A stretch of 64,000 nt of DNA, from positions 3,816 to 67,815 of the forward strand of contig CAZRGC010000003.1 in assembly GCA_964599625.1 (NCBI GenBank). Reading direction: 5' to 3'. This DNA comes from an uncultured Gammaproteobacteria bacterium. GTDB lineage: Bacteria; Patescibacteriota; Microgenomatia; UBA8517. Positions 6,157 through 47,945 of this stretch are shown piece by piece (the stretch's first letter is position 1; every line of letters starts with the position of its first letter). The notes under the pieces are model-generated. The model was not told the DNA's origin. It worked only from the letters and a program-made list of their open reading frames with translations, and searched no databases. A program made the position numbers and the translations under genes.

Positions 6157-8832
6157 ATGCAAAAATCAAGGCCAAAATGCCTCAATATTCATACAGCAAG
6201 TAAAGCTTTCTACTCTTTACTGGTCCTAGTTTTGGGTGTGTTTGTTGTGGCTGTAATGCTTCAAATAAAAACAGTTATGGCAGAGGATGCTATTCCAAGG
6301 CCAGGAAACGTTCCTTGTGAGACTGAAAAAAACCCAGAATACAGCAGCGGCCGACCTTATCAGGCTTCTCCTTGTGGGGATGCGCCCAAAACTTATTGGT
6401 GCGGTAATGCAGTTGTTATATATCTAAACACAGTTAAGTGTCCCTATAACGGCAGTCCCACTTGCACACCGACGGTAACACATTACGAAAAGAAAATAGC
6501 TGTCGAAATGCTTGATGCAGAACTCCCAATCATGGGAAACACCGAATTAACATCTAATAGCGTTAATGGCACGGGTACAATGGATGACGGAACCAAACTA
6601 AACGAATATATGAGCTGGTACCTTAACGGGGTAAACGACAAGGCCGAGTACCCCGAAAGCAGCATAGATCAATCAGTTAATATGTCCGGACCCTTAAGAA
6701 GGCTTTTACCCGGTGTGATACAAGACGCAGCAAGAGTAGAAATCATCAAATCCCCCGACGGAGACACATCAAACGTTGACGATGAGACCGGCGAATCCAC
6801 TCCAGAAAAAATGAATCACAACAATATTGTGGTTTGTGCAAAAGAAGGTGGTGGTGGTCTTCTTGGTTGGATAGTGGATCTTTTTAATGTAGGGGCAACT
6901 ACTCCGCTTGAATGCTACAAGGGGGGCGGGTCGGGAGCACAAGGTGACGTTTATAGATTGAAGGACTGGAACGGCAATTTGACAATACTTAACGCTTTGT
7001 CGAATACAGTAGTACGCACAGCAGTAAACGCCTACCAAGTTTTGTTTCCGTTTGCCTCACTGGGTGAGATAGAAGCATCCATTGGAAACCATTGGAATCT
7101 CAGACGCCCTCCCCTTCCCTGGGACGACGGTACCGGTAAACCATTCGCAAGAAACGTTGACTATCAAAAAGCATACTACGAGTGGCGGGGGCAAACCTGT
7201 ATGATTATTCCGGTTATTGATAGACTTGCCTGTTTCGAAAACCTTCTAGTTCCAAATAAATATGCAGATTTGTTCCCATATATTCCTCTTGCAAACACCA
7301 GAGATATACCCGGAGCACACACTGTCCTTCTTGCTCATGTAAGTGCGGCAAAAGCAGAAATATTGGAGTCTGATTACCAAATAATCAAGCCGGCTTTTCG
7401 CTTGTGGATTCCACACGCGGCTGAAAATTTTGAACTCACAAGTCTTCTTAAAAAGACTTTTGTTCCCAAAGCTAAAGACGGTGCTAGCTCTACAGCCCCA
7501 GCAGCAAGCCTGAGCGATGTCGAAATAAACAACGCGCCATGCAAGATATTAAATTCGAGAAGTAATCCGGGCGACGATGTAAACTTTGAAAATCCAAAAA
7601 AATGGATTGAGGTGGATGTGCAATACGATGTTGGAGAAATTCAATGTAGTGAGCCGCATGAAGAGTGCAAGGAAGACACAAATCCCAGTAGCCCCACTTA
7701 CGGACAAACTATTTGCAAAATGGTCGCAACCTGTGAGTCAGAAGTTTATGCAACAATACCCACGGTAGGCAAGACTCCATACGCAGATGAGATTTGGAAT
7801 AACTCCGTGGCAGGCCCGGACTCCGTGTTTAGAAGAATTTACCCCAAAACAGGTGCCAACGCCCCTGTTTCGTGTATTGCCGACCTTCCGGCCGAATCCA
7901 AAGCAACATATAAAATCACAGATCCAAGCAGCGAAGGGATCAGACTTACACAAGTAATTCTTCCTGATGATAGCCGCATGGGATCGTTTGCCAACAAGAC
8001 GGAGTCTTTGGAAGCAAAAGTGTTTTATCCCCATTACGGAGGTGTATTGGAATACTTTTTAAACGGTATCCAAACAGCGCTTAGACCCCAAGGTTATAGC
8101 GATTCGCAACCAATGAGTGGTCAATCATGCAGCAACATTCAATGTGGCGAGCTTCCCGATCTTCCCAAAGCATCGGGTTCTTGCCAACTTGGCGGTGTCA
8201 GTTCCCGTGTGGGTAAAATTCCAAAAGCTTTAAGCGACATAATTTCTGCTGCCGCACAAACATACAAAGTCCCCCCCAACCTATTAATCGGGCAGATGTT
8301 TGGTGAAGGACTTTTTAATCCGGGAAGATACGAGTGGACCGAGGAAAATGTTAAAAACTGGGCAACGTGTACAAAAATTCCGGGATGTAATGAGACAGGA
8401 GATGATCACTTTATGGGATTCAACGGAACAGTTTTTGAACGAACAGTCCCTAAAATAAAAGCAGATTTACAAAAAATCGATCCCAGCAGGAAAACATTCA
8501 GTCAGTGTAATCTTCTGGATGCAATTTATGCTGCCGCTTATAATCTTCACGACAGTGCTGACGGCGGAGGCGGGCTTCCCGCGACATGTTTCGGAATAAA
8601 ACTTAGTGCACCAGTACCATCATCCTGCTCCTGGACTGATGAACAATACGAATCAGCAATCAAAGTTTACGAGAGTGGTTATACAAGTATGTGTATGACG
8701 GTTGAAAACGGTTGTGCAATAGGAGGCTTGGCAGCTGCCTGCCCAGCAGGCGATACCTGCGAAACAATAAGCAATAGATATTCAAGTCCAAGCCACAACG
8801 CCTGTGTTTGGGACGTGGCACACGGCAACTAA
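6157..8832 (+). CDS. Large Cys-rich secreted/membrane-anchored protein with a C-terminal lytic-transglycosylase (SLT family 1)-like domain; putative VirB1 analogue
   Basis: N-terminal signal-anchor helix. More than 40 Cys. The C-terminal region reads AAQTYKVPPNLLIGQMFGEGLFNP ... HFMGFNG ... AAAYNLHD, which parallels SLT motifs I-III (E-S/GxxNP, GLMQ, AYNxG). Confidence 0.5.
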   Translation: MQKSRPKCLNIHTASKAFYSLLVLVLGVFVVAVMLQIKTVMAEDAIPRPGNVPCETEKNPEYSSGRPYQASPCGDAPKTYWCGNAVVIYLNTVKCPYNGSPTCTPTVTHYEKKIAVEMLDAELPIMGNTELTSNSVNGTGTMDDGTKLNEYMSWYLNGVNDKAEYPESSIDQSVNMSGPLRRLLPGVIQDAARVEIIKSPDGDTSNVDDETGESTPEKMNHNNIVVCAKEGGGGLLGWIVDLFNVGATTPLECYKGGGSGAQGDVYRLKDWNGNLTILNALSNTVVRTAVNAYQVLFPFASLGEIEASIGNHWNLRRPPLPWDDGTGKPFARNVDYQKAYYEWRGQTCMIIPVIDRLACFENLLVPNKYADLFPYIPLANTRDIPGAHTVLLAHVSAAKAEILESDYQIIKPAFRLWIPHAAENFELTSLLKKTFVPKAKDGASSTAPAASLSDVEINNAPCKILNSRSNPGDDVNFENPKKWIEVDVQYDVGEIQCSEPHEECKEDTNPSSPTYGQTICKMVATCESEVYATIPTVGKTPYADEIWNNSVAGPDSVFRRIYPKTGANAPVSCIADLPAESKATYKITDPSSEGIRLTQVILPDDSRMGSFANKTESLEAKVFYPHYGGVLEYFLNGIQTALRPQGYSDSQPMSGQSCSNIQCGELPDLPKASGSCQLGGVSSRVGKIPKALSDIISAAAQTYKVPPNLLIGQMFGEGLFNPGRYEWTEENVKNWATCTKIPGCNETGDDHFMGFNGTVFERTVPKIKADLQKIDPSRKTFSQCNLLDAIYAAAYNLHDSADGGGGLPATCFGIKLSAPVPSSCSWTDEQYESAIKVYESGYTSMCMTVENGCAIGGLAAACPAGDTCETISNRYSSPSHNACVWDVAHGN

Positions 8833-8876
8833 ATCTCTTTTAAAAAAACAAATTTAGTTTTGGTATAATATCTTTA

Positions 8877-10676
8877 ATGCCTTTCTTTCATAAAACTCAC
8901 ATGTTTTTCAAAAAGTTTTTAGTTTCGTTTATGGCTGCCTGGATACTCGTTTTGTCCGTTGCGCCTTTTTCAATAGCAGCAGCTGCCACAGCCACCCCAG
9001 CCCCAACAGGAACATGGTATAACTCAAGTTTTCAGGATTGGTATTCCAAAGTCTACGACGACAGCAATCAAAGCGAAATTTTTGGCGAAAGATATACAGC
9101 CGCACAAGTACAGTGGGTTGTTTACGGACTTCTATCGTTCCTTGTAAACCAGACCAGCAACCAAAAACTTCTTAGTTGTTTGTTCAAGAATTCAGCAAAC
9201 CTGAACGCATGCGCAAGCTTACTTACCTATTCAGAAAAAGATCTTCAAGAACTCGCAAACAGACCCAAAGTAAAAGAGCCATCACTTGCCAGTCTTGTTT
9301 TTTCCAAAGAAAGGTCTTTTTCCGGAATTAACTATGTAAGGGAAAAGGTAGATAATTTTAGTCTTGTCCCCGAAGCTCATGCCCAAACAGTTGGTTTTGG
9401 CTTTAACGCCCTTAAGCCTGTTCAGGCAATGTGGCAAACTTCAAGAGACTTGGCATTTGGACTTTTTGTTTTGGCTGCGATCGTTTTTGCATTCATGATC
9501 ATGTTTAGAGTAAAAATATCTCCACAGGTGGTAATTTCGGTTCAAACGGCTCTTCCCAAGCTTATAGGTGCGTTGATATTGGTTACCTTCTCCTACGCCA
9601 TTGCAGGGTTTTTGGTTGATTTAATGTATGTAGTTTACGGATTGGTGGCGCTTTTGGGTAAAGGCTTTATTCCCTTTGGTGGCGCTGGTGTTTCTCCCGC
9701 AACAGTTTTTGAATTTATGACAGCAGGAAGAGTTGGTGGAGCAGGTGCAGGAATTGAATTAGGGCTCATGGGGCTTTTGTTTATATATCTTGTACTCCTC
9801 CCCATTTCGTTTGTAATAACACTGTTTTTGACGATTGGTGTTTTGGGAGCAGCTGTAATTGGACTTGTTGGAACAATTTTGGCACCTCTTTTTGCAGGCC
9901 TGGGAACAATAATGGCCTTGGTTGCAATTGTTTTGGTAATCATTTTGATCATAGTAATTATTTGGCAATTGGTAAAAATCATTTTCGGACTCCTTAAGGC
10001 ATACACAAACATTATTCTTTTGACAATTTTCGCGCCTGTGCAAATAGTTGCGGGTGTTTTTATTCCAAGTCTTGGTTTTGGTTCTTGGCTTAGAAGTTAT
10101 GTAACCAACTTGGGAATATTTGTATTAACAAGTGTTCTTATATTTTTCTCTTTTGTATTTTTGGAGCAAGGAGTGGCCCTCGCATGGGAAGGACTTGGTA
10201 GCAACATCGGCGCAGGGATACTTTCGTTTATTTTTGGTCAATCAACAATCGCAAATCTTGGAGGTTTCTTTGTAAACAATTCTGCATGGCCACCCCTTTT
10301 GAGTTCCACGGCCTCCACAGGCGGCGGCACAGGTCTTTTGATGCTTGGTGTTAGCTTTGTACTCTTTACGCTAATTCCTAAAGCCACAGAGGTGTTGCAA
10401 GGCCTTATGAGTGGCAGACCGTTTGCATACGGAACCGCAATCGGTGAGGCTTTTGGGCCGGTTGCACCATTTGCTGAGTATGGGAAGGGTGCTGCAATGA
10501 GAGCTGCCATCAGAAAGGGTGTTCAGATGGACAACGAAGGCAGATTGCCAAGCGGTGGTATGTGGACATATTTGAAAGAGGGTCTAAGAGATGCCGCAGA
10601 GCAACAAAGAATGTCTACTGTAAGAGGAAGAGACACAGACAATACTTCCGTCAGACCTCCAAGCGAGAGAAGATAA
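8877..10676 (+). CDS. Polytopic inner-membrane protein (at least 8 TM), VirB6/TrbL-like candidate
   Basis: 599 aa with a signal-like N-terminus, many long hydrophobic helices with Gly-rich packing, and a C-terminal charged tail. It sits between the lytic enzyme and the ATPase genes, the usual VirB6 position. Confidence 0.4.
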   Translation: MPFFHKTHMFFKKFLVSFMAAWILVLSVAPFSIAAAATATPAPTGTWYNSSFQDWYSKVYDDSNQSEIFGERYTAAQVQWVVYGLLSFLVNQTSNQKLLSCLFKNSANLNACASLLTYSEKDLQELANRPKVKEPSLASLVFSKERSFSGINYVREKVDNFSLVPEAHAQTVGFGFNALKPVQAMWQTSRDLAFGLFVLAAIVFAFMIMFRVKISPQVVISVQTALPKLIGALILVTFSYAIAGFLVDLMYVVYGLVALLGKGFIPFGGAGVSPATVFEFMTAGRVGGAGAGIELGLMGLLFIYLVLLPISFVITLFLTIGVLGAAVIGLVGTILAPLFAGLGTIMALVAIVLVIILIIVIIWQLVKIIFGLLKAYTNIILLTIFAPVQIVAGVFIPSLGFGSWLRSYVTNLGIFVLTSVLIFFSFVFLEQGVALAWEGLGSNIGAGILSFIFGQSTIANLGGFFVNNSAWPPLLSSTASTGGGTGLLMLGVSFVLFTLIPKATEVLQGLMSGRPFAYGTAIGEAFGPVAPFAEYGKGAAMRAAIRKGVQMDNEGRLPSGGMWTYLKEGLRDAAEQQRMSTVRGRDTDNTSVRPPSERR

Positions 10677-10743
10677 CACAACCTTTAGTGCCTCTGCTTT
10701 GTTTTTCCAACCAAACCCATATTGTCAGATTAAATTAATGAAG

Positions 10744-13700
10744 TTAAAAATTCTTCTTTACGTTGGTTATCGCCGCTGACACAGATTCCTGCTGATCTGT
10801 ACCATGCTTAATTACAGACCTAACAATTCTTTCACCTTGCATTACTGTGAGCAAGGCAACTTGAGCTGATGTGCCAGGATAATTGTGAACCTTCCTTACT
10901 TTTGTTGGCATGTCCAAAAGAACATTGATCCATTTGGTAACATCTTGCCTTTGGAAACTAGCAAACAACTTGTCAATTTCTGTTTCAGTTGGAGTTTTAC
11001 CCATGAGTCCAGCGCTTTTAATTGCTGCCAACATCTTGTTTTGTGCAAACGAAGATGCACGCAGCACGCCGTCTGACCAATTAAAAATTCTTCCACCAAG
11101 CCTACCTCTTTTACCCAACTCTTTATCAGCTGTTCCGGAAGGCTCGCCCAAGAAGTGTTTTTCGTACTCGGGTTGTGTAGATCTGTTGAATTCGTGTGGT
11201 GTAACAATTGGACCAAGCCATCTTTCCATTTGGTCATGAGAGACTCTAATGTAGCTGTATTTGTATCTGTCCATATTCTCCCAATTTAGCTTTGAATTTC
11301 TCTCTCCACGGAGCCTTCTGTGCCAAACACTCACGCTTCTACCGTCCACAGTTCTGGCTGATGGAGAATCCAAAGTCATACTTCTCCAAAAACCAAGAGG
11401 TAACGAGGTCGGCATGAACATAGGCATTGTCAAATAGTCACTCTTGGGATTTCCGGGTTCTGCCAAGAATGGTGTCATGTAAGACCACATGTTGTTGTAA
11501 ATAAAATCGCGGACTCTTGTGTCAAATTTTCCATAATATTGCTCTTGGATACCATTTTTTCCTTTCATATACACTTTTCTAGCTACCATCTTCTCTAAAG
11601 GATTGTCATCAGACAGGATCCCTCCACGTGCTGTAATTTTTCCATCTAGACCGATGCCCAACCTCCTCAAAAGATCAGGGTCGTTCTTTGCTATTACCTC
11701 AACTTTTGGCCTCCAATAAGGTGGTTGCTCGAGCCATTTGTCCCTATATTCACCTATTGTTGGAAACACCAAAACACCAGAGCCCCTGGTTTCTGCCATT
11801 ATGTCGTAGTCGATCATGTGTCTTGCCAGATAAACAACCGTTGTTACATCATGATTTTCATAGATACTCCCCATCTCCGATCTCCTTTTTACTCCAAGTT
11901 CGGCAGCAGTTTTACCCTCTCCTGTAATCTCTTTCCATTCACCTTCACTTACATTCTTTTTGTAAACTCGCTGCTCAACATACTCATCGCCATTTGAGAG
12001 ATCGACAACTACTTTGAAATTGGGGTTTGAAGCCAACGCCCTCCAAACAACTTCATCTGTTTTCTTTTTGTAAGTTTTTCCGCCACCCAGAATCACATAC
12101 TCTTCACCGGTTCCTGTTTCTGTAAGAATTGGTTTCTTTTTAACCTCTTCGTAATTCCAAGTCCAACCGAGATCTCCACCGGAAAGAACACCTTTTTCAA
12201 TATTTATTGTGCTTTTTATAACTTGTTCAGCAAGTCTTGCATATGGCGATTCTGTGTCGTCTAAGGCTTCCCATTGTTCTGATCTCTGAGCAGCTCTATC
12301 TTTTAGCTCGCCAGCCAAAGCTTTAATTCTTGCAAGTCTTACAGCAGGATTTCCTACAGCCATAATTTCCTCCATTTTTTGCTCATAATATGCAGCATTT
12401 AGAACCAGTTGCTGCATTCTTGATTCAAAAGCTCTTATAGCCAACTCGTCGTTACGGGGCATACAAAACGGATTTAATATTTTCTCTTTTACAGTAATCA
12501 TTGTTCCGTCCGCAGCTTTGTATTGGAATTCACCAACTTCACTCACTGTACCGTCAGCATTAACTGTTTCCATCGCCATGACTTCCTGTAAAAACATAAA
12601 TGTTTCAATGTTTTCTACTACCGCATACCTCTCACCCTCTTCTTTGTCTGCGTCGTTTTCGGTCCAACTACCACCATCGAGAAGATCCAAATTCTTCTGT
12701 CCCACAGCAACGGCTTTATATAGCCATTTTATTGACGCATCTTGTTGTTCAACTGCAACCTCTCGCATACCAAGTCTTTCTACTGGATTACCATTCTCAT
12801 CTCTTGATTGTCTGAGGAGTCTGTCAGGCCTTTTTGAAAGTGTCTTTTTGACAAGTTCGCGCTGTTCATCCGTAAGATCAGCCCCCCTAAGTTTGTCTTT
12901 ATAAAGCCTAATAAAATCTTGAGCCACAAGTTCTGTGTGCGGGCTTCTTATCCACTGAAGCATGAGTTCTCCGTCAAAGTACAGTTCAAAAGCTGGCCCC
13001 ATTCCTTCTACAACCCTGGCGTTGGCATTTGCCCACAACATATCTCTTTTGAGCATCTTAAGAAGTGCTGTGGTTTCAGGATTTTTTGCTCGATCGGTGT
13101 TTCTGAGCTTGTCAGTAACCTGTTCCAAAGCTTGTTCAAAATACTGCATCGCATACCTGGAGTCGTATGGGTATGGGTTTTTGAGATGCTCAAGATATCT
13201 GTTTAATCCTCCCAACTCGTCCATGGTTGTCTGGATGATGTTTTCGTAAGCCTCAGCTGCTCTTTCTCTTGCTCCTTCGAGCCTCTTTTCTCTCTCGTTC
13301 GGTTCCTCAATCAAATAATCTGCAACCTCGGCAGCAAATTTATCCCCACTTTCGACAGCGTCCCAATCATCTCCACCCTTGGAACCCTTGATCATAACCT
13401 TTTCGTTTTTAGCTTTTTTGTCATCAACTGCTTTTCTTAGTTCTTCTTGTTCGGTTTTGAGAGTGTCTCTCGCATCCTGAAGGCTAGGGCTTGCCTCAAC
13501 TTCAACCCAATCAGTACTCTGTTCAATCTTGTTCCTTAAAAGTCTTACTTTAAATATCATTTGATCCAAGTCTCTGGTGTCGTTTTCAATAAGCCCAATC
13601 TGCTCGGCTGCCATAAGGAATTTGGGCATATATGAATATTTTCCTTCCTCGTTCCTCCTCGCCAATCTCATTTCATGCTCCATTCTCTCTTTGTTGGGGT

Positions 13701-13941
13701 CTTTATCATCCTCTTTTCCATGCTGCATTCTTATATCGGGAAGGTTTGCTTTCATCATTGGCTGAGACTCGGCAAAATTCCTGGCTGCATCGACTTGAGA
13801 TTTACCCAAAGCAACAGCATTGCTGTCGATAGACGAAATTTGATTAGCCGCAAAGTCTTTGGCCTGGGTACCCCCCAGATTCATCATTGCCCTAACTGAG
13901 GGTGATATGTTTGGATCGTTTGGAACAGATTCTCTTGTCAT
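10744..13941 (-). CDS. Large (1065 aa) soluble hypothetical protein, no recognisable domain
   Basis: Long uninterrupted ORF with no signal peptide or TM helix and charged/acidic-rich composition. It is divergent to the T4SS operon and convergent with the VirB6-like gene. Confidence 0.5.
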   Translation of the reverse strand: MTRESVPNDPNISPSVRAMMNLGGTQAKDFAANQISSIDSNAVALGKSQVDAARNFAESQPMMKANLPDIRMQHGKEDDKDPNKERMEHEMRLARRNEEGKYSYMPKFLMAAEQIGLIENDTRDLDQMIFKVRLLRNKIEQSTDWVEVEASPSLQDARDTLKTEQEELRKAVDDKKAKNEKVMIKGSKGGDDWDAVESGDKFAAEVADYLIEEPNEREKRLEGARERAAEAYENIIQTTMDELGGLNRYLEHLKNPYPYDSRYAMQYFEQALEQVTDKLRNTDRAKNPETTALLKMLKRDMLWANANARVVEGMGPAFELYFDGELMLQWIRSPHTELVAQDFIRLYKDKLRGADLTDEQRELVKKTLSKRPDRLLRQSRDENGNPVERLGMREVAVEQQDASIKWLYKAVAVGQKNLDLLDGGSWTENDADKEEGERYAVVENIETFMFLQEVMAMETVNADGTVSEVGEFQYKAADGTMITVKEKILNPFCMPRNDELAIRAFESRMQQLVLNAAYYEQKMEEIMAVGNPAVRLARIKALAGELKDRAAQRSEQWEALDDTESPYARLAEQVIKSTINIEKGVLSGGDLGWTWNYEEVKKKPILTETGTGEEYVILGGGKTYKKKTDEVVWRALASNPNFKVVVDLSNGDEYVEQRVYKKNVSEGEWKEITGEGKTAAELGVKRRSEMGSIYENHDVTTVVYLARHMIDYDIMAETRGSGVLVFPTIGEYRDKWLEQPPYWRPKVEVIAKNDPDLLRRLGIGLDGKITARGGILSDDNPLEKMVARKVYMKGKNGIQEQYYGKFDTRVRDFIYNNMWSYMTPFLAEPGNPKSDYLTMPMFMPTSLPLGFWRSMTLDSPSARTVDGRSVSVWHRRLRGERNSKLNWENMDRYKYSYIRVSHDQMERWLGPIVTPHEFNRSTQPEYEKHFLGEPSGTADKELGKRGRLGGRIFNWSDGVLRASSFAQNKMLAAIKSAGLMGKTPTETEIDKLFASFQRQDVTKWINVLLDMPTKVRKVHNYPGTSAQVALLTVMQGERIVRSVIKHGTDQQESVSAAITNVKKNF

Positions 13942-14064
13942 CTTTGTGTAGCCTGCAAATTATATAACAATACCACCCCAACTTCAAAGCTGTCGGGTTT
14001 TGACCAAAAACCTATAATGTGAGATAATTGTGTCTGTTCAAATTTTGCACATTAGGAGTCTCAG

Positions 14065-14337
14065 ATGAGAGATTTTTTGAGTAAGTTCAAACCCTGGCAA
14101 TTGGTTGTGTTGGCCATCTTGGCAATACCAGTGCTTGTGGCGGTTCTTATCATACCGGGAGGACTGCTTTTCGCCGGACTTTTGCTTGCCGGGGTGGTTT
14201 CCTTTTTCCGAATGAAGTCGTCAGACGGCAGGTCAAAGGTTTTTTGGACTTTAATTTTTATCCTCAGCATAGTTTTTGGCATAATTTTGTGCTGTGGATC
14301 GGCTTATTACGTTGTCTACGCTTTTTTTGCCCAATAA
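14065..14337 (+). CDS. Small 3-TM membrane protein, hypothetical
   Basis: 90 aa, almost entirely hydrophobic helices. Followed by an intrinsic terminator. Confidence 0.4.
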   Translation: MRDFLSKFKPWQLVVLAILAIPVLVAVLIIPGGLLFAGLLLAGVVSFFRMKSSDGRSKVFWTLIFILSIVFGIILCCGSAYYVVYAFFAQ

Positions 14338-14358
14338 AACACAAACACTTTTGGTTCC

Positions 14359-14405
14359 GCCCTTGCGGTTACTTTTTTTGTAACACACCGCAAGGGCTTT
14401 TTTTG
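14359..14405 (+). terminator. Rho-independent terminator
   Basis: GCCCTTGCGGT (14359-14369), a 17-nt loop, then ACCGCAAGGGC (14387-14397) as a perfect 11-bp inverted repeat. It is followed by TTTTTTTG. Confidence 0.6.
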
Positions 14406-14434
14406 TGAAAAAGGCTTCATCTTGCACCGTACGC

Positions 14435-14464
14435 TTCACGCAGTAATCTAATCATAGGTATATT
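14435..14464 (+). promoter_or_regulatory. Candidate sigma70-like promoter for the PrgI-like/VirB4 operon
   Basis: TTCACG, an 18-nt spacer, then TATATT, 20 nt upstream of the ATG at 14485. It sits directly after a terminator. Confidence 0.25.
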
Positions 14465-14484
14465 TATTACCTTCTACTGCCAAC

Positions 14485-15618
14485 ATGGAACAACATCCAA
14501 TTCCACAACAAATAAGTTCCTATCAATTCCGTTTGGTGGGAGATATGACCCTCAAACAGTTTTTCCAACTTGCGGGTGGATTTTTGGTGGCACTTATTTT
14601 TTATTCTTCCCCACTTATTGGAATTATCAAATGGCCTTTTGTAATTGTATCCGCACTTCTTGGTGTCGGTCTTGCTTTTTTGCCTTTGGAAGAAAGGCCG
14701 TTGGAAAAATGGATTTTTGCTTTTTTCAAAGCAATATATGCACCAACCGAATTTTACTGGGAAGAAACAAAAACACCTGTTAAATTTTTTATGGATGAGC
14801 CCGCAAGCAGTGTGAATGCAAACACAGCAGCTCCACAAGAAAAAGCCTTGCAAGACTATCTTTCTGTTGCAAATCAAAGAACTGGCTCATCTGCAAAAAT
14901 GGAAATGGCTGAACAGGGATTTTTAGCAACGCTTACCGGAATATTTACAGGAGTGGTTTCGCCTGTAACAACTGGCATACCTCCAGCACCCGCACAGTCA
15001 GCGGCTCCAACCCCGGCAGTCACACCCTTAACCATGCCAAAAGAACCCATTAGCGCACCACAGGCACCCGTTGAACAAAAAGAAATACAAATACCCCAGA
15101 CTGCTCCTATAAAAGTTGTCTCCAATATACCTCATTTGGTAATCGAAGAAAGAAAAGCGGATCCACTAGCACCAGAACCACAAATAACAACACACCAAGT
15201 TGCACCAACTATGGCGGGTGAGGAAATGATTTCCACCAAACAAGCTTTGTTCTCAATCGACGCTGCCCCACCAAGCCCTCCAACAATTCCAAACGTTGTT
15301 GTTGGACAAGTGGTAGATGAAAATAGAAGAATAGTCGAAGGTGCGATTATGGAAATACGAGACTCTGGCGGCAGACCAATACGAGCACTAAGAAGTAACA
15401 AGGCTGGTCATTTTATAACCGTTACTCCACTTGAGATAGGTAAATACGACGTTTTAACAGAAAAAGATGGCTTCGATTTTACAGCAATATCTTTTGAAGC
15501 AACGGGAAACTTGATTCCTCCAATCCTTGTTCAAGGCAAACATAGTACTCAGCAGCCTGCGCAGGTTACCCAGGCTCCACCAATAGTTTCTGCAAACCCT
15601 GTAGCAACGACTAACTAA
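14485..15618 (+). CDS. PrgI/VirB3-like membrane protein fused to a Pro-rich linker and a C-terminal beta-sandwich (CarboxypepD_reg-like) domain
   Basis: N-terminal YQFRLVGDMTLKQFFQLAGGFLVALIF plus a second TM helix resembles PrgI-family (VirB3 analogue) proteins that precede VirB4. Middle region is PA/PQ-rich. C-terminal VVGQVVDENRRIVEGAIMEIRDSGGRPI...GHFITVT...GKYDV follows the transthyretin-like fold pattern. Confidence 0.45.
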   Translation: MEQHPIPQQISSYQFRLVGDMTLKQFFQLAGGFLVALIFYSSPLIGIIKWPFVIVSALLGVGLAFLPLEERPLEKWIFAFFKAIYAPTEFYWEETKTPVKFFMDEPASSVNANTAAPQEKALQDYLSVANQRTGSSAKMEMAEQGFLATLTGIFTGVVSPVTTGIPPAPAQSAAPTPAVTPLTMPKEPISAPQAPVEQKEIQIPQTAPIKVVSNIPHLVIEERKADPLAPEPQITTHQVAPTMAGEEMISTKQALFSIDAAPPSPPTIPNVVVGQVVDENRRIVEGAIMEIRDSGGRPIRALRSNKAGHFITVTPLEIGKYDVLTEKDGFDFTAISFEATGNLIPPILVQGKHSTQQPAQVTQAPPIVSANPVATTN

Positions 15619-15624
15619 CCAACT

Positions 15625-16332
15625 ATGGCATTAAACCCACCAAACTTATCAAAACTTCCCAAAATTCCATACCTTTCCATTCCGGATAAACCTATTACTG
15701 CAACCAGCCAAGACCATGTACCAATTGCAGACATTACAAATGATATTTTAATTTACAAAGACGGAGGCGCCGCACTTGTGATGGAGTCAACATCTCTCAA
15801 TTTCGGACTTTTAAGCGAAAAGGAGCAACAGGCCGTAATCGCAGCATATGCAGCAATGATTAATTCGCTTTCTTTCTCTGTTCAGATTGTTGTAAGAACA
15901 TCCAGAAAGGACATAAGCTCTTATTTGTCATTTTTGGATGAACAAGCCAAAAAACTTACACACCCCCTCTTGGTGAGGCTTATGGCCAACTACAGAGGTT
16001 TTATTACCGAGTCTGTTAAGAAGAAGAACGTTCTTGGGAAAAGATTTTTTGTGATTTTGTATCTTTCGCCATTAGAACTGGGGGTCGGCAAATCAGTACA
16101 AACACTTACTAAACGTGGCGGGCCACTTCCCTACACAAAATCTTATGTTATTAAAAAAGCTAAGATTACTTTGTATCCCAGGCGGGATCACTTGGTTCGC
16201 CAGGCAGGGCGTCTTGGTATAAAATTCAGGCAACTTACAACACCGGAGCTTGTCAATCTTTTTTATACTATCTACAACCCCGAAAGACCCGCAGTTAAAA
16301 AAGAACCCGAGGTTGTAATGGACAAAAAATAA
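15625..16332 (+). CDS. VirB4-family protein, N-terminal segment (split gene or frameshift)
   Basis: ADITNDILIYKDGGAALVMESTSLNFGLLSEKEQQAVIAAYAAMINSLSFSVQIVV matches the conserved N-terminal VirB4/TraC/PrgJ motif (D.I..KDG....LEV...NF.L.S..EQ). It ends at a poly-A tract 4 nt before the next ORF, which is in a different frame. Confidence 0.5.
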   Translation: MALNPPNLSKLPKIPYLSIPDKPITATSQDHVPIADITNDILIYKDGGAALVMESTSLNFGLLSEKEQQAVIAAYAAMINSLSFSVQIVVRTSRKDISSYLSFLDEQAKKLTHPLLVRLMANYRGFITESVKKKNVLGKRFFVILYLSPLELGVGKSVQTLTKRGGPLPYTKSYVIKKAKITLYPRRDHLVRQAGRLGIKFRQLTTPELVNLFYTIYNPERPAVKKEPEVVMDKK

Positions 16333-16336
16333 AAAA

Positions 16337-18376
16337 ATGAATATCAAACTACCATTCATGAAACAGCAGAATCCGGTACCAGCCTCTGCTTTGGGTGTTG
16401 ACCCTATGCAAAACACTCAACCACCAATGGTGCTACAAACACCACCCACAATCGTTCCACCTACTACAAACCCTCCCGTCGCGCCACAAACACCAACAAC
16501 TCCTCCACCTACAAATCCATCGTTACAAAACCCACAAACCTCATTTGCACCGACACCTGTGCAACAAACACCTCCAAACACACAAGTTCAACCAACCCCT
16601 ACTGCCGTAAAGACTGCTAAACAAAAATATACAAACCCGGGTTTGGCTGTAACCCAAGGAGCAAATGTGTTGGATGTTATTGCTCCGCAATTGGTTGAGG
16701 AGGACTTTGATTACATAAAAATAAACGATGTTTATTTTCGAACCATATTTGTTGGTGGCTATCCCAGATTTGTCGCCCCGGGTTGGCTTGAGCCTGTAGT
16801 TAATTTTGATTCAAGCCTTGATATTTCTTTTTATGTTTATCCGGTAGATGGAAAATCTGTTCTGGACGATCTAAGGAGAAAGATCGCAGAAATGGAAGCA
16901 GAAATATCAACAGACATCGAACGCGGAAAAATAGTTGATCCTTCTACCTCAGCCAAATTGGAAGATGCCAGAGCTCTTCAGGAACAACTTGTTAAAGGAA
17001 TAGAACGTTTTTACGAATTTTCTTTTTACATAACAATTCCGGCAAATACTGTCGATGAACTAAACCATGTTACAAAACAAATTGAATCACAGTTGGGATC
17101 GCTTTTGATTGTTTCCAAACACGCTCTTTTAGACCAAGAGTCAGGATTTTTGTCTACCGCACCCTTTGGAATGGACAGATTAAACATCACAAGGAATATG
17201 GATACGACTTCTGTAGCAACAACCTTCCCTCTTACCTCTACAGAACTTTCCAGCGACCGCGGAGTTTTGTACGGTATAAATTCTCAAAACGAGTCCTTCA
17301 TTATTTTTGACAGATTTAGTCTCCAAAACAGTAACATGGTTATCTTTGCAACCTCAGGTGCCGGAAAGTCATTTTTTGTTAAGTTGGAGGCTTTAAGATC
17401 TTTGATGACAGGAACCGAAGCAATAATTCTTGATCCTGAAAACGAATACAAACCACTCGCACAAGCGGTTGGTGGTGAATATATTTCTTTCTCCTATAAC
17501 TCCGATGCCAAAATCAATCCTTTTGATCTGGCCCAGATACGTGAAGAGGGCGAGAACCAGCTTGGGTTGAAAATTTTATCCTTACATTCACTTATGAAAG
17601 TTATCATGGGACAAATATCTCCCACCCAGGACGCACTTTTGGACAGAGCACTTGTTATGACCTACAGAAACAAAGGAATCACCATGGACCCTGATACCCA
17701 AGGAAAAGAACCCCCTCTTATGGAAGATCTATACAAAACCCTTATTGGAATGGAGGTTCCAGATGCACTTGATTTAGCAGCACGTATCGAGAAATTTGTA
17801 AGAGGAAGTTTTGTGGGAATTTTTGATAAACAAACCAACATCAATCTAAACAATCCTTTTACTGTTTTCTCAGTTAAAGACATGCAAGATGCAATACGCC
17901 CGATTGCAATGTTTATCATCCTTGATTACATTTGGACTCGCGTCAAAAAGGACATTAAAAAACGAGTCCTTTTAGTGGATGAGGCTTGGCACATGATGAG
18001 ATATCCCGACACCGCTCAATTCTTGTGGAGCGTTGTCAAAAGAGCACGTAAATATTATCTTGGGCTTACAACAATCACCCAAGACGTAGAGGACTTCTTG
18101 GCACAAGACATAGGCAAGGCAATTGTCACCAACAGCTCCATGCAGGTGCTTCTGAAACAATCACCTGCTGCAATTGATAAAATCGGGGAGGTGTTTTATT
18201 TGAGTCAGGGAGAAAAACAGCTCCTTCTTGCAGCCAATGTCGGAGAGGGAATATTCTTTGCAGGACCACACCATGCCCCAATAAGAGTGGTTGCCTCGGA
18301 AGAAGAAAATAGATTGATAACAACCAAGCCAGAAGAGGTTGCTAAATTTAACCCAGCCGCGTATAACACCAAATAA
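16337..18376 (+). CDS. virB4: VirB4/TraC/PrgJ-family T4SS ATPase (middle and ATPase domains) with an N-terminal Pro/Thr-rich linker
   Basis: YFRTIFVGGYPRFVAPGWLEPVV (conserved VirB4 N-domain motif), Walker A IFATSGAGKSFFV, Walker B RVLLVDEAWHMM, and a downstream TTITQDVEDF motif. Confidence 0.8.
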   Translation: MNIKLPFMKQQNPVPASALGVDPMQNTQPPMVLQTPPTIVPPTTNPPVAPQTPTTPPPTNPSLQNPQTSFAPTPVQQTPPNTQVQPTPTAVKTAKQKYTNPGLAVTQGANVLDVIAPQLVEEDFDYIKINDVYFRTIFVGGYPRFVAPGWLEPVVNFDSSLDISFYVYPVDGKSVLDDLRRKIAEMEAEISTDIERGKIVDPSTSAKLEDARALQEQLVKGIERFYEFSFYITIPANTVDELNHVTKQIESQLGSLLIVSKHALLDQESGFLSTAPFGMDRLNITRNMDTTSVATTFPLTSTELSSDRGVLYGINSQNESFIIFDRFSLQNSNMVIFATSGAGKSFFVKLEALRSLMTGTEAIILDPENEYKPLAQAVGGEYISFSYNSDAKINPFDLAQIREEGENQLGLKILSLHSLMKVIMGQISPTQDALLDRALVMTYRNKGITMDPDTQGKEPPLMEDLYKTLIGMEVPDALDLAARIEKFVRGSFVGIFDKQTNINLNNPFTVFSVKDMQDAIRPIAMFIILDYIWTRVKKDIKKRVLLVDEAWHMMRYPDTAQFLWSVVKRARKYYLGLTTITQDVEDFLAQDIGKAIVTNSSMQVLLKQSPAAIDKIGEVFYLSQGEKQLLLAANVGEGIFFAGPHHAPIRVVASEEENRLITTKPEEVAKFNPAAYNTK

Positions 18377-18378
18377 TT

Positions 18379-47873: not shown

Positions 47874-47945
47874 AGGCCAGAGCGGGAATCGAACCCGCGC
47901 ATGGCGGTTTTGCAGACCGCAGCGTTTCCACTTCGCCATCTGGCC
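47874..47945 (-). tRNA. tRNA-Cys (GCA)
   Basis: Minus-strand GGCCAGATGGCGAAGTGGAAACGCTGCGGTCTGCAAAACCGCCATGCGCGGGTTCGATTCCCGCTCTGGCCT. 7-bp acceptor stem, D-arm, anticodon loop CUGCAAA, T-arm GGTTCGATTCC. No encoded CCA. Confidence 0.85.

Follow-up and report, generated by a model that had tools for sequence, protein, structure and literature searches.

Two-gene forms of VirB4, an ATPase of type IV secretion systems (T4SSs), have been described before. In the Staphylococcus aureus plasmid pGO1, whose conjugation genes are of the pGO1/pSK41 type, trsD (227 amino acids, aa) is followed after 14 nucleotides (nt) by trsE (672 aa), which encodes the VirB4, and TrsD has been recognized as a remote homologue of the VirB4 N-terminus (Quinonero-Coronel et al. 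2025, PMC12102498). The same study found TrsD to be the most abundant T4SS component in Patescibacteria, with 2,272 homologues, 1,664 of them adjoining virB4, and reported it from 2,221 Patescibacteria assemblies; it is essential in Ca. Southlakia epibionticum (PMC12102498; Wang et al. 2023, PMC10633639). Patescibacterial T4SS clusters often lie near dnaA, and PrgI/VirB3 has been reported beside virB4 (PMC12102498). Here we examine a virB4 locus at positions 15625-18376 of a 64,000-nt stretch of contig CAZRGC010000003.1 (assembly GCA_964599625.1), to which we refer as the window. At this locus a TrsD-like open reading frame (ORF1, 235 aa) is followed by an ATPase-encoding one (ORF2, 679 aa). 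An initial annotation, made from the sequence alone, had placed the break between them at a poly-A tract, and had offered as explanations a genuine two-polypeptide VirB4, programmed slippage, or a homopolymer error in sequencing or assembly.

The locus closely resembles the chromosomal T4SS of Patescibacteria, both in gene order (a PrgI-like and a TrsD-like gene, followed by one for a VirB4 akin to the CD1110/MPF-FATA class) and in its place beside dnaN and dnaA. We found no essential difference between the two, although PMC12102498 calls TrsD a remote homologue and not a missing domain. The two-gene arrangement of TrsD and VirB4 is thus already published and is normal both in Patescibacteria and in pGO1. 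The plasmid itself differs in being conjugative, with a relaxase and a coupling protein, whereas the window locus is chromosomal, lies at the origin, and has no relaxase among the neighbours that were scanned with family models. We consider it very probable that the window encodes a naturally split VirB4 within a chromosomal T4SS-like operon of a Woesebacteria/Microgenomates-type Patescibacterium, in which ORF1 would be a free-standing VirB4 N-terminal domain and ORF2 the middle domain together with the RecA-like ATPase. The system is important biologically; it is essential for epibiotic growth in the sole Patescibacterium tested (PMC10633639, PMC12102498).

Homology of the two halves and their collinearity with fused VirB4

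ORF2 (16337-18376, plus strand) opens with its own ATG and matches the NCBIfam model for CD1110-family VirB4 (NF045971) with 372.6 bits, above the curated cut-off of 325 (E = 3.8e-111); it also matches P-loop_TraG (E = 2e-29), AAA_10 and DUF87 in Pfam. The match covers model positions 181-735 of 752, so that the N-terminal domain is absent from ORF2. Full length in this family means an N-domain and an ATPase in one polypeptide; ORF2 has the second of these, and ORF1 supplies the missing part. The middle domain and ATPase form the conserved core (ORF2 aa 95-679, positions 16619-18376). As the initial annotation had stated, the 679-aa ORF carries both the YPxxVxxGWL motif, here YPRFVAPGWL at aa 142-151, and the Walker motifs, which we located at aa 339-346 (Walker A, TSGAGKSF, 17351-17374) and aa 544-551 (Walker B, VLLVDEAW, 17966-17989). 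Residues G341, G343, K344, S345 and E549 are invariant in 49 homologues. The best 120 homologues of ORF2 are 569-673 aa long, save one of 1188 aa that bears an intein. The alignment available for AlphaFold2 modelling of ORF2 was shallow, with 49 sequences of which most share 80% identity or more with ORF2, and the resulting model was poor overall, with a mean predicted local distance difference test score (pLDDT) of 47.5.

The homology of ORF1 (15625-16332, plus strand; TAA at 16330-16332) to the VirB4 N-terminal domain is genuine though remote. ORF1 matches the NCBIfam TrsD/TraD model (NF041427) with E = 5.1e-7 and 29.7 bits, and aligns to positions 103-234 of VirB4_plasma, a mycoplasma VirB4 model (E = 9e-6). 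A precomputed match to PF26593 (TraC-like), marked as weak, is recorded both for a protein identical to ORF1 and for nearly all of its close homologues. When the ORF1 family was compared with pGO1 TrsD by hhalign, the two aligned nearly end to end, ORF1 residues 26-220 to TrsD 32-218, over 180 columns (95.6% probability, E = 1.1e-8). An AlphaFold2 model of ORF1, built from 71 homologues, is confident (mean pLDDT 85.4); in a Foldseek search of the PDB, each of the 13 best matches is a TrwK/VirB4 chain from the R388 T4SS, with probabilities of 0.80-0.98. We detected 1575 homologues of ORF1, the best 120 of which are all 225-256 aa long. The initial annotation was therefore right to relate the 235-aa ORF to the VirB4 N-terminus, in so far as remote homology bears this out, but the N-terminal motif to which it appealed was not named.

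The two halves are complementary. Joined to the ORF2 core, ORF1 gives one continuous alignment to positions 104-892 of the 894 in VirB4_plasma, and fused homologues show the same order of domains. P0262 (787 aa), a naturally fused patescibacterial homologue present in five independent assemblies, covers CD1110 positions 3-735 in a single stretch, and an 860-aa fused relative from one metagenome-assembled genome (MAG; L028:2628-5210) covers positions 7-724 of TIGR00929 (VirB4_CagE). These fused forms have a small spacer between the halves or none, and P0262 has almost none. The P0262 cluster also contains four sequences of 772-787 aa, taken from other assemblies, that are nearly full-length, and the former stop region of L028 reads GEIKKAHEILEK.

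In pGO1 the division falls at the same point, TrsE covering CD1110 positions 183-730 and ORF2 positions 181-735; the two proteins are 26% identical (E = 1e-43) from ORF2 residue 112 onwards. Ahead of the conserved core there are about 30 aa in TrsE and about 94 in ORF2, the latter including a Pro/Thr/Gln-rich spacer. When ORF1 and ORF2 are joined, their domains and domain order match those of single-chain VirB4/TraC proteins (the CD1110 family, and TrwK of R388, PDB 7O42/7O43/8RTB), with Walker A and B present. TrwK differs in that its N-terminal domain lies within one chain whereas ORF1 is separate, and a profile search detects no sequence similarity between ORF1 and TrwK: the ORF1 family profile yielded no match among PDB sequences even at E up to 10. 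The strongest evidence for the identity of ORF1 is its collinearity, together with ORF2, with full-length VirB4; taken with the profile and structure matches, it indicates that ORF1 and ORF2 equal one VirB4.

Two observations on inteins concern the same ATPase. Some Woesebacteria have an in-frame insertion of about 1.6-1.7 kb in the VirB4 ATPase gene, roughly at Walker A (L007:5568-7252, L010:5572-7256, L032:5477-7053). The 1188-aa homologue (P0183) carries Pfam intein-splicing and LAGLIDADG homing-endonuclease domains, which identifies the insertion as an intein in the P-loop. The window lacks this intein.

Conservation of the split and alternative explanations

ORF1 ends GAC AAA AAA TAA; four A residues follow, and then the ATG of ORF2 at 16337, which lies in the +1 frame relative to ORF1. 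This agrees with the initial annotation, which had described the two ORFs as being in different frames and 4 nt apart. The junction string that it quoted, CAAAAAATAAAAAAATG, is also present, although at 16323-16339 (plus strand) and not, as given there, at 16325-16341; it comprises the two Lys codons, the TAA stop, the 4-nt A spacer and the ORF2 ATG, and thus forms an A6-T-A7 tract. Across six independently assembled contigs that all encode the ORF1 protein, from six Sequence Read Archive (SRA) runs, whose overall nucleotide identity to the window ranges from 92.7 to 100% (two of them at 92.7% and 94.7%), the 110 nt around the junction are identical.

We surveyed the junction at 36 loci that were informative, in genomes of Woesebacteria, Microgenomates and further Patescibacteria. 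At 35 of these the N-domain gene ends in a stop codon and the ATPase gene has a separate ATG; L028 is the sole fused locus. The ATPase gene lies in relative frame 0, +1 or +2 at 4, 14 and 17 of the split loci, respectively. The commonest junction is an ATGA overlap (13 loci), two loci have TAATG, and several have AAGGAGG just upstream. An A-run is missing at most of the surveyed loci, and neither the tract nor the frame offset is kept in relatives. The 'first ATG' rule by which starts were picked is probably wrong in a few loci, L025 for example, but the counts of splits and frames are independent of the choice of start; odd values at L007, L010 and L032 were traced to inteins. More than 100 standalone homologues were found for each half. 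Amino-acid identity to the window within Woesebacteria/Microgenomates is 64-91% for ORF1 and 74-97% for the ORF2 core, and 55% and 76% at the most distant locus. For Patescibacteria both halves are unusually conserved, ORF1 at about 75-91% and the ATPase core at 85-97% in most of L001-L022, while the spacer between them is unalignable.

These results strongly support a genuine two-polypeptide VirB4, the split being found at 35 of 36 loci with varying frames and spacings. The poly-A tract, on which the initial annotation had laid emphasis, is incidental: it consists of two Lys codons, a stop and an A-rich spacer at an ordinary tight operon junction. That annotation had also proposed a comparison with orthologues, holding that a split in these, along with read support for the A-run lengths, would mean a natural split free of any frameshift; they too are split.

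An error in a homopolymer, dividing what is really one gene for a chain of about 915 aa, would be suggested by the position of the junction within A6 and A7 runs, where a change of 1 nt fuses the frames. We regard such an error as extremely improbable, given that the A-run lengths and the whole 110-nt junction region are the same in the six contigs, including the two that differ most from the window elsewhere, that orthologues without any A-run are also split, and that hundreds of homologues of either half stand alone. The A-run could also be a site of programmed ribosomal frameshifting or of slippage in transcription, yielding a single VirB4 of about 915 aa as a functional product, be it the major one or a regulated minor one. 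The frame of ORF2 is open from 16319, and removing one A from the A6 run, or adding two, brings VVMDKNKKMNIKLPF into frame with ORF2; moreover, the fused VirB4 of L028 and P0262 implies that a fused chain would probably work. However, orthologues share neither a slippery tract nor a common frame offset, and every frame relation is represented among the 35 split loci. L001, the closest relative, is 91% and 97% identical in amino acids over the two parts; its two genes share one frame, with a TAA and 9 nt between them, and a simulated slip of -1, +1 or +2 A never fuses them. ORF2 begins at an ATG of its own, its N-terminal peptide is conserved, and relatives have the ATGA and TAATG overlaps and upstream AAGGAGG described above. 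Efficient slippage takes place on tracts of about nine or more A. The A6 and A7 runs are shorter than this and are also commonplace, the window (40.4% GC) having 110 A-runs of at least 6 and 39 of at least 7. Furthermore, an Rfam scan of the whole window returned a single tRNA (47874-47945) and no element at the junction, and promoter and terminator scans of 13900-21900 did no better than chance, with no site predicted between ORF1 and ORF2 and no terminator-like hairpin at the junction. Slippage as the explanation for the two ORFs is thus very improbable.

A different alternative accepts the two genes but makes of ORF1 an independent accessory T4SS component, TrsD, descended from a VirB4 N-domain and no longer part of VirB4, so that it would be wrong to speak of a 'split VirB4'. 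Published work regards TrsD as a component in its own right, of unknown function, and in Gracilibacteria TrsD homologues are mostly away from virB4 (PMC12102498); in other lineages the TrsD-like proteins also have long tails with a conserved C-terminal motif of their own. Against this, ORF2 and pGO1 TrsE begin at model positions 181 and 183, precisely where the homology of ORF1/TrsD ends, collinear fused forms occur within the same clade, and distant loci keep the order PrgI-like, TrsD-like, ATPase without change. We therefore think it very improbable that ORF1 has left VirB4 in this way.

A naturally split VirB4 remains our preferred explanation, although several points weigh against it. The 29.7 bits of ORF1 are far under the curated cut-off of 200 bits for NCBIfam TrsD (pGO1 TrsD itself scores 227.6 bits), ORF1 has no family in the local copy of Pfam-A, which presumably lacks PF26593, and its Foldseek E-values to TrwK are weak (0.03-0.27), from a search that does not report which region of the target is aligned. 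The ATG at 16337 has no obvious Shine-Dalgarno sequence before it. In the window, the loss of one A or the gain of two in the A6 run (16324-16329) does fuse the frames, and on this ground a rare slipped, fused product may also be made. Finally, the binding of ORF1 to ORF2, their co-translation and any role of the spacer are points that we only infer.

If a naturally split VirB4 is accepted, both proteins would probably be translated from one operon mRNA, as the gene gaps of only 2-6 nt suggest, and the two products would probably reassemble non-covalently at the membrane, together with the PrgI/VirB3-like protein, into a functional VirB4 unit; such reassembly is modelled on the two domains within a single-chain VirB4. 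For annotation, ORF1 and ORF2 should be neither merged nor called a pseudogene or a frameshift, and ORF1 should be named a TrsD-like VirB4 N-terminal-domain protein. That the TrsD-like protein and the ATPase complement each other exactly, that fusions occasionally occur and that the spacer is mobile and probably disordered are details that should be useful in modelling the machine.

The ORF2 start and the low-complexity spacer

Public gene calls place the start of ORF2 at a second ATG, at 16358, giving a protein of 672 aa. The segment at issue forms part of the peptide MNIKLPFMKQQ (16337-16369, plus strand), which is conserved. L001 encodes MNIKLPF with four synonymous and no non-synonymous changes relative to the window, and carries Ser where the window has the second Met. 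The retention of this peptide through synonymous changes, in a relative that lacks the second Met, supports 16337 better than 16358, and from these sequence comparisons 16337 is probably the true start. A start resembling xLPFxKK is found in other lineages also. LPF occurs inside the first 16 aa in 16 of 120 called homologues, a low count that is due in part to start-site calls.

Between MNIKLPFMKQQ and the conserved core (KQKYTNPGLAVTQGANVLDVIAP), which begins at KQKYTNPGLAV, lies the low-complexity spacer (ORF2 aa 12-94, 16370-16618, plus strand). Its 83 aa are 29% Pro, 19% Thr and 12% Gln, in agreement with the Pro/Thr/Gln-rich segment that the initial annotation had noticed near the start of ORF2; this segment is an N-terminal extension of the ATPase polypeptide, however, and not, as had been suggested there, the internal linker of a chain of about 915 aa. 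Between the window and L001 the spacer is almost unalignable, yet it stays in frame (indels of 15 and 18 nt) and keeps its Pro/Gln-rich composition. In Woesebacteria, the window included, the spacer extends the ATPase at its N-terminus; over 119 homologues this extension measures between about 0 and 87 aa (median 26), which places the window at the long end for its clade. Tandem Repeats Finder returned no repeat in the spacer DNA. The AlphaFold2 model of ORF2 has no secondary structure at the spacer, with pLDDT of 30-40, but as the model is poor overall the low confidence over residues 1-96 does not discriminate for disorder. We read the spacer as translated and fast-evolving, and as probably disordered.

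The low-complexity segment is always found where N-domain and ATPase are divided, but in distant lineages it lies on the other side of the break, as a C-terminal tail of the TrsD-like protein. These tailed proteins are 300-715 aa long (P0283, P0293, P0299 and P0383 among others, and the products of L044:4001-5125 and L045:725-2842), and their tails are rich in Gln, Pro, Thr, Ser and Asn, mostly 100-400 aa in length (median about 190) and at the longest about 500. The tails often end in LPP(I/L)(A/P)EI(K/T/E), and the downstream ATPase often opens with an xLPFxKK-like peptide. A hypervariable spacer that switches sides in this manner was not found described in the literature searched, and a term search of PMC12102498 returned no mention of a low-complexity spacer or of fused variants. 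The flanking peptides, xLPFxKK and LPP(I/L)(A/P)EI, could be docking motifs that hold the halves or membrane partners together. It is a speculative and rather doubtful proposition that the Pro/Thr/Gln segment has a function, as a flexible tether found only in the split VirB4 of Patescibacteria.

Operon neighbours and the origin region

Directly upstream of ORF1, with a gap of 6 nt, lies the gene for a PrgI/VirB3-like membrane protein of 377 aa (14485-15618, plus strand), which has a Pro/Ala/Gln-rich region of its own; it matches Pfam PrgI with E = 5.2e-5 and 24.1 bits, below the 27-bit cut-off. Beginning 2 nt after ORF2 is a 942-aa operon gene (18379-21207, plus strand) whose product is hydrophobic and Gly/Ala-rich over a long middle part and carries THEVSHH, which resembles HExxH, in its C-terminal part. 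It gave a weak zinc-metallopeptidase match (E = 0.0016) and, beyond this, no family in NCBIfam or Pfam scans; the protein may serve the cluster as a peptidase or an envelope component. In S. epibionticum, the peptidase and lysozyme genes that follow virB4 are essential (PMC12102498). The remaining gene gaps within the operon, of 6, 2 and 6 nt, are as tight as the ORF1/ORF2 junction.

Apart from the PrgI-like gene, the operon neighbours gave essentially no family matches in NCBIfam and Pfam. Flanking the operon are three large ORFs (891, 599 and 1065 aa; 6157-13941) and a 90-aa hydrophobic ORF (14065-14337), all four without a Pfam or NCBIfam match. Counted from the TrsD-like gene, the 90-aa ORF is the second gene upstream, which is the position of the CagC-family (pilin-like) gene relative to pGO1 trsD. 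In pGO1, trsD is preceded by a small hypothetical gene in the trsC position, itself preceded by the CagC-family gene, and the gene in the trsC position has a VirB3-type profile (PMC12102498).

Downstream of the T4SS operon, at a distance of about 0.6-2 kb, are dnaN (21852-22970, minus strand; Pfam DNA_pol3_beta, three domains) and dnaA (23261-24625, minus strand; Pfam Bac_DnaA, E = 8e-63), followed by yidC, the three genes together occupying 21852-26358. This indicates that the window covers the chromosomal origin region. The dnaN/dnaA neighbourhood recurs in the distant loci L044 and L045, where a PrgI-like gene (annotated only in L044), a TrsD-like gene and the ATPase gene are followed by dnaN and/or dnaA. 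We also observed that the MAG records of L001, L007, L009, L012 and others carry this Patescibacteria-type operon under the titles 'uncultured Gammaproteobacteria bacterium' or 'Nitrospiraceae'; these bins are probably mislabelled.

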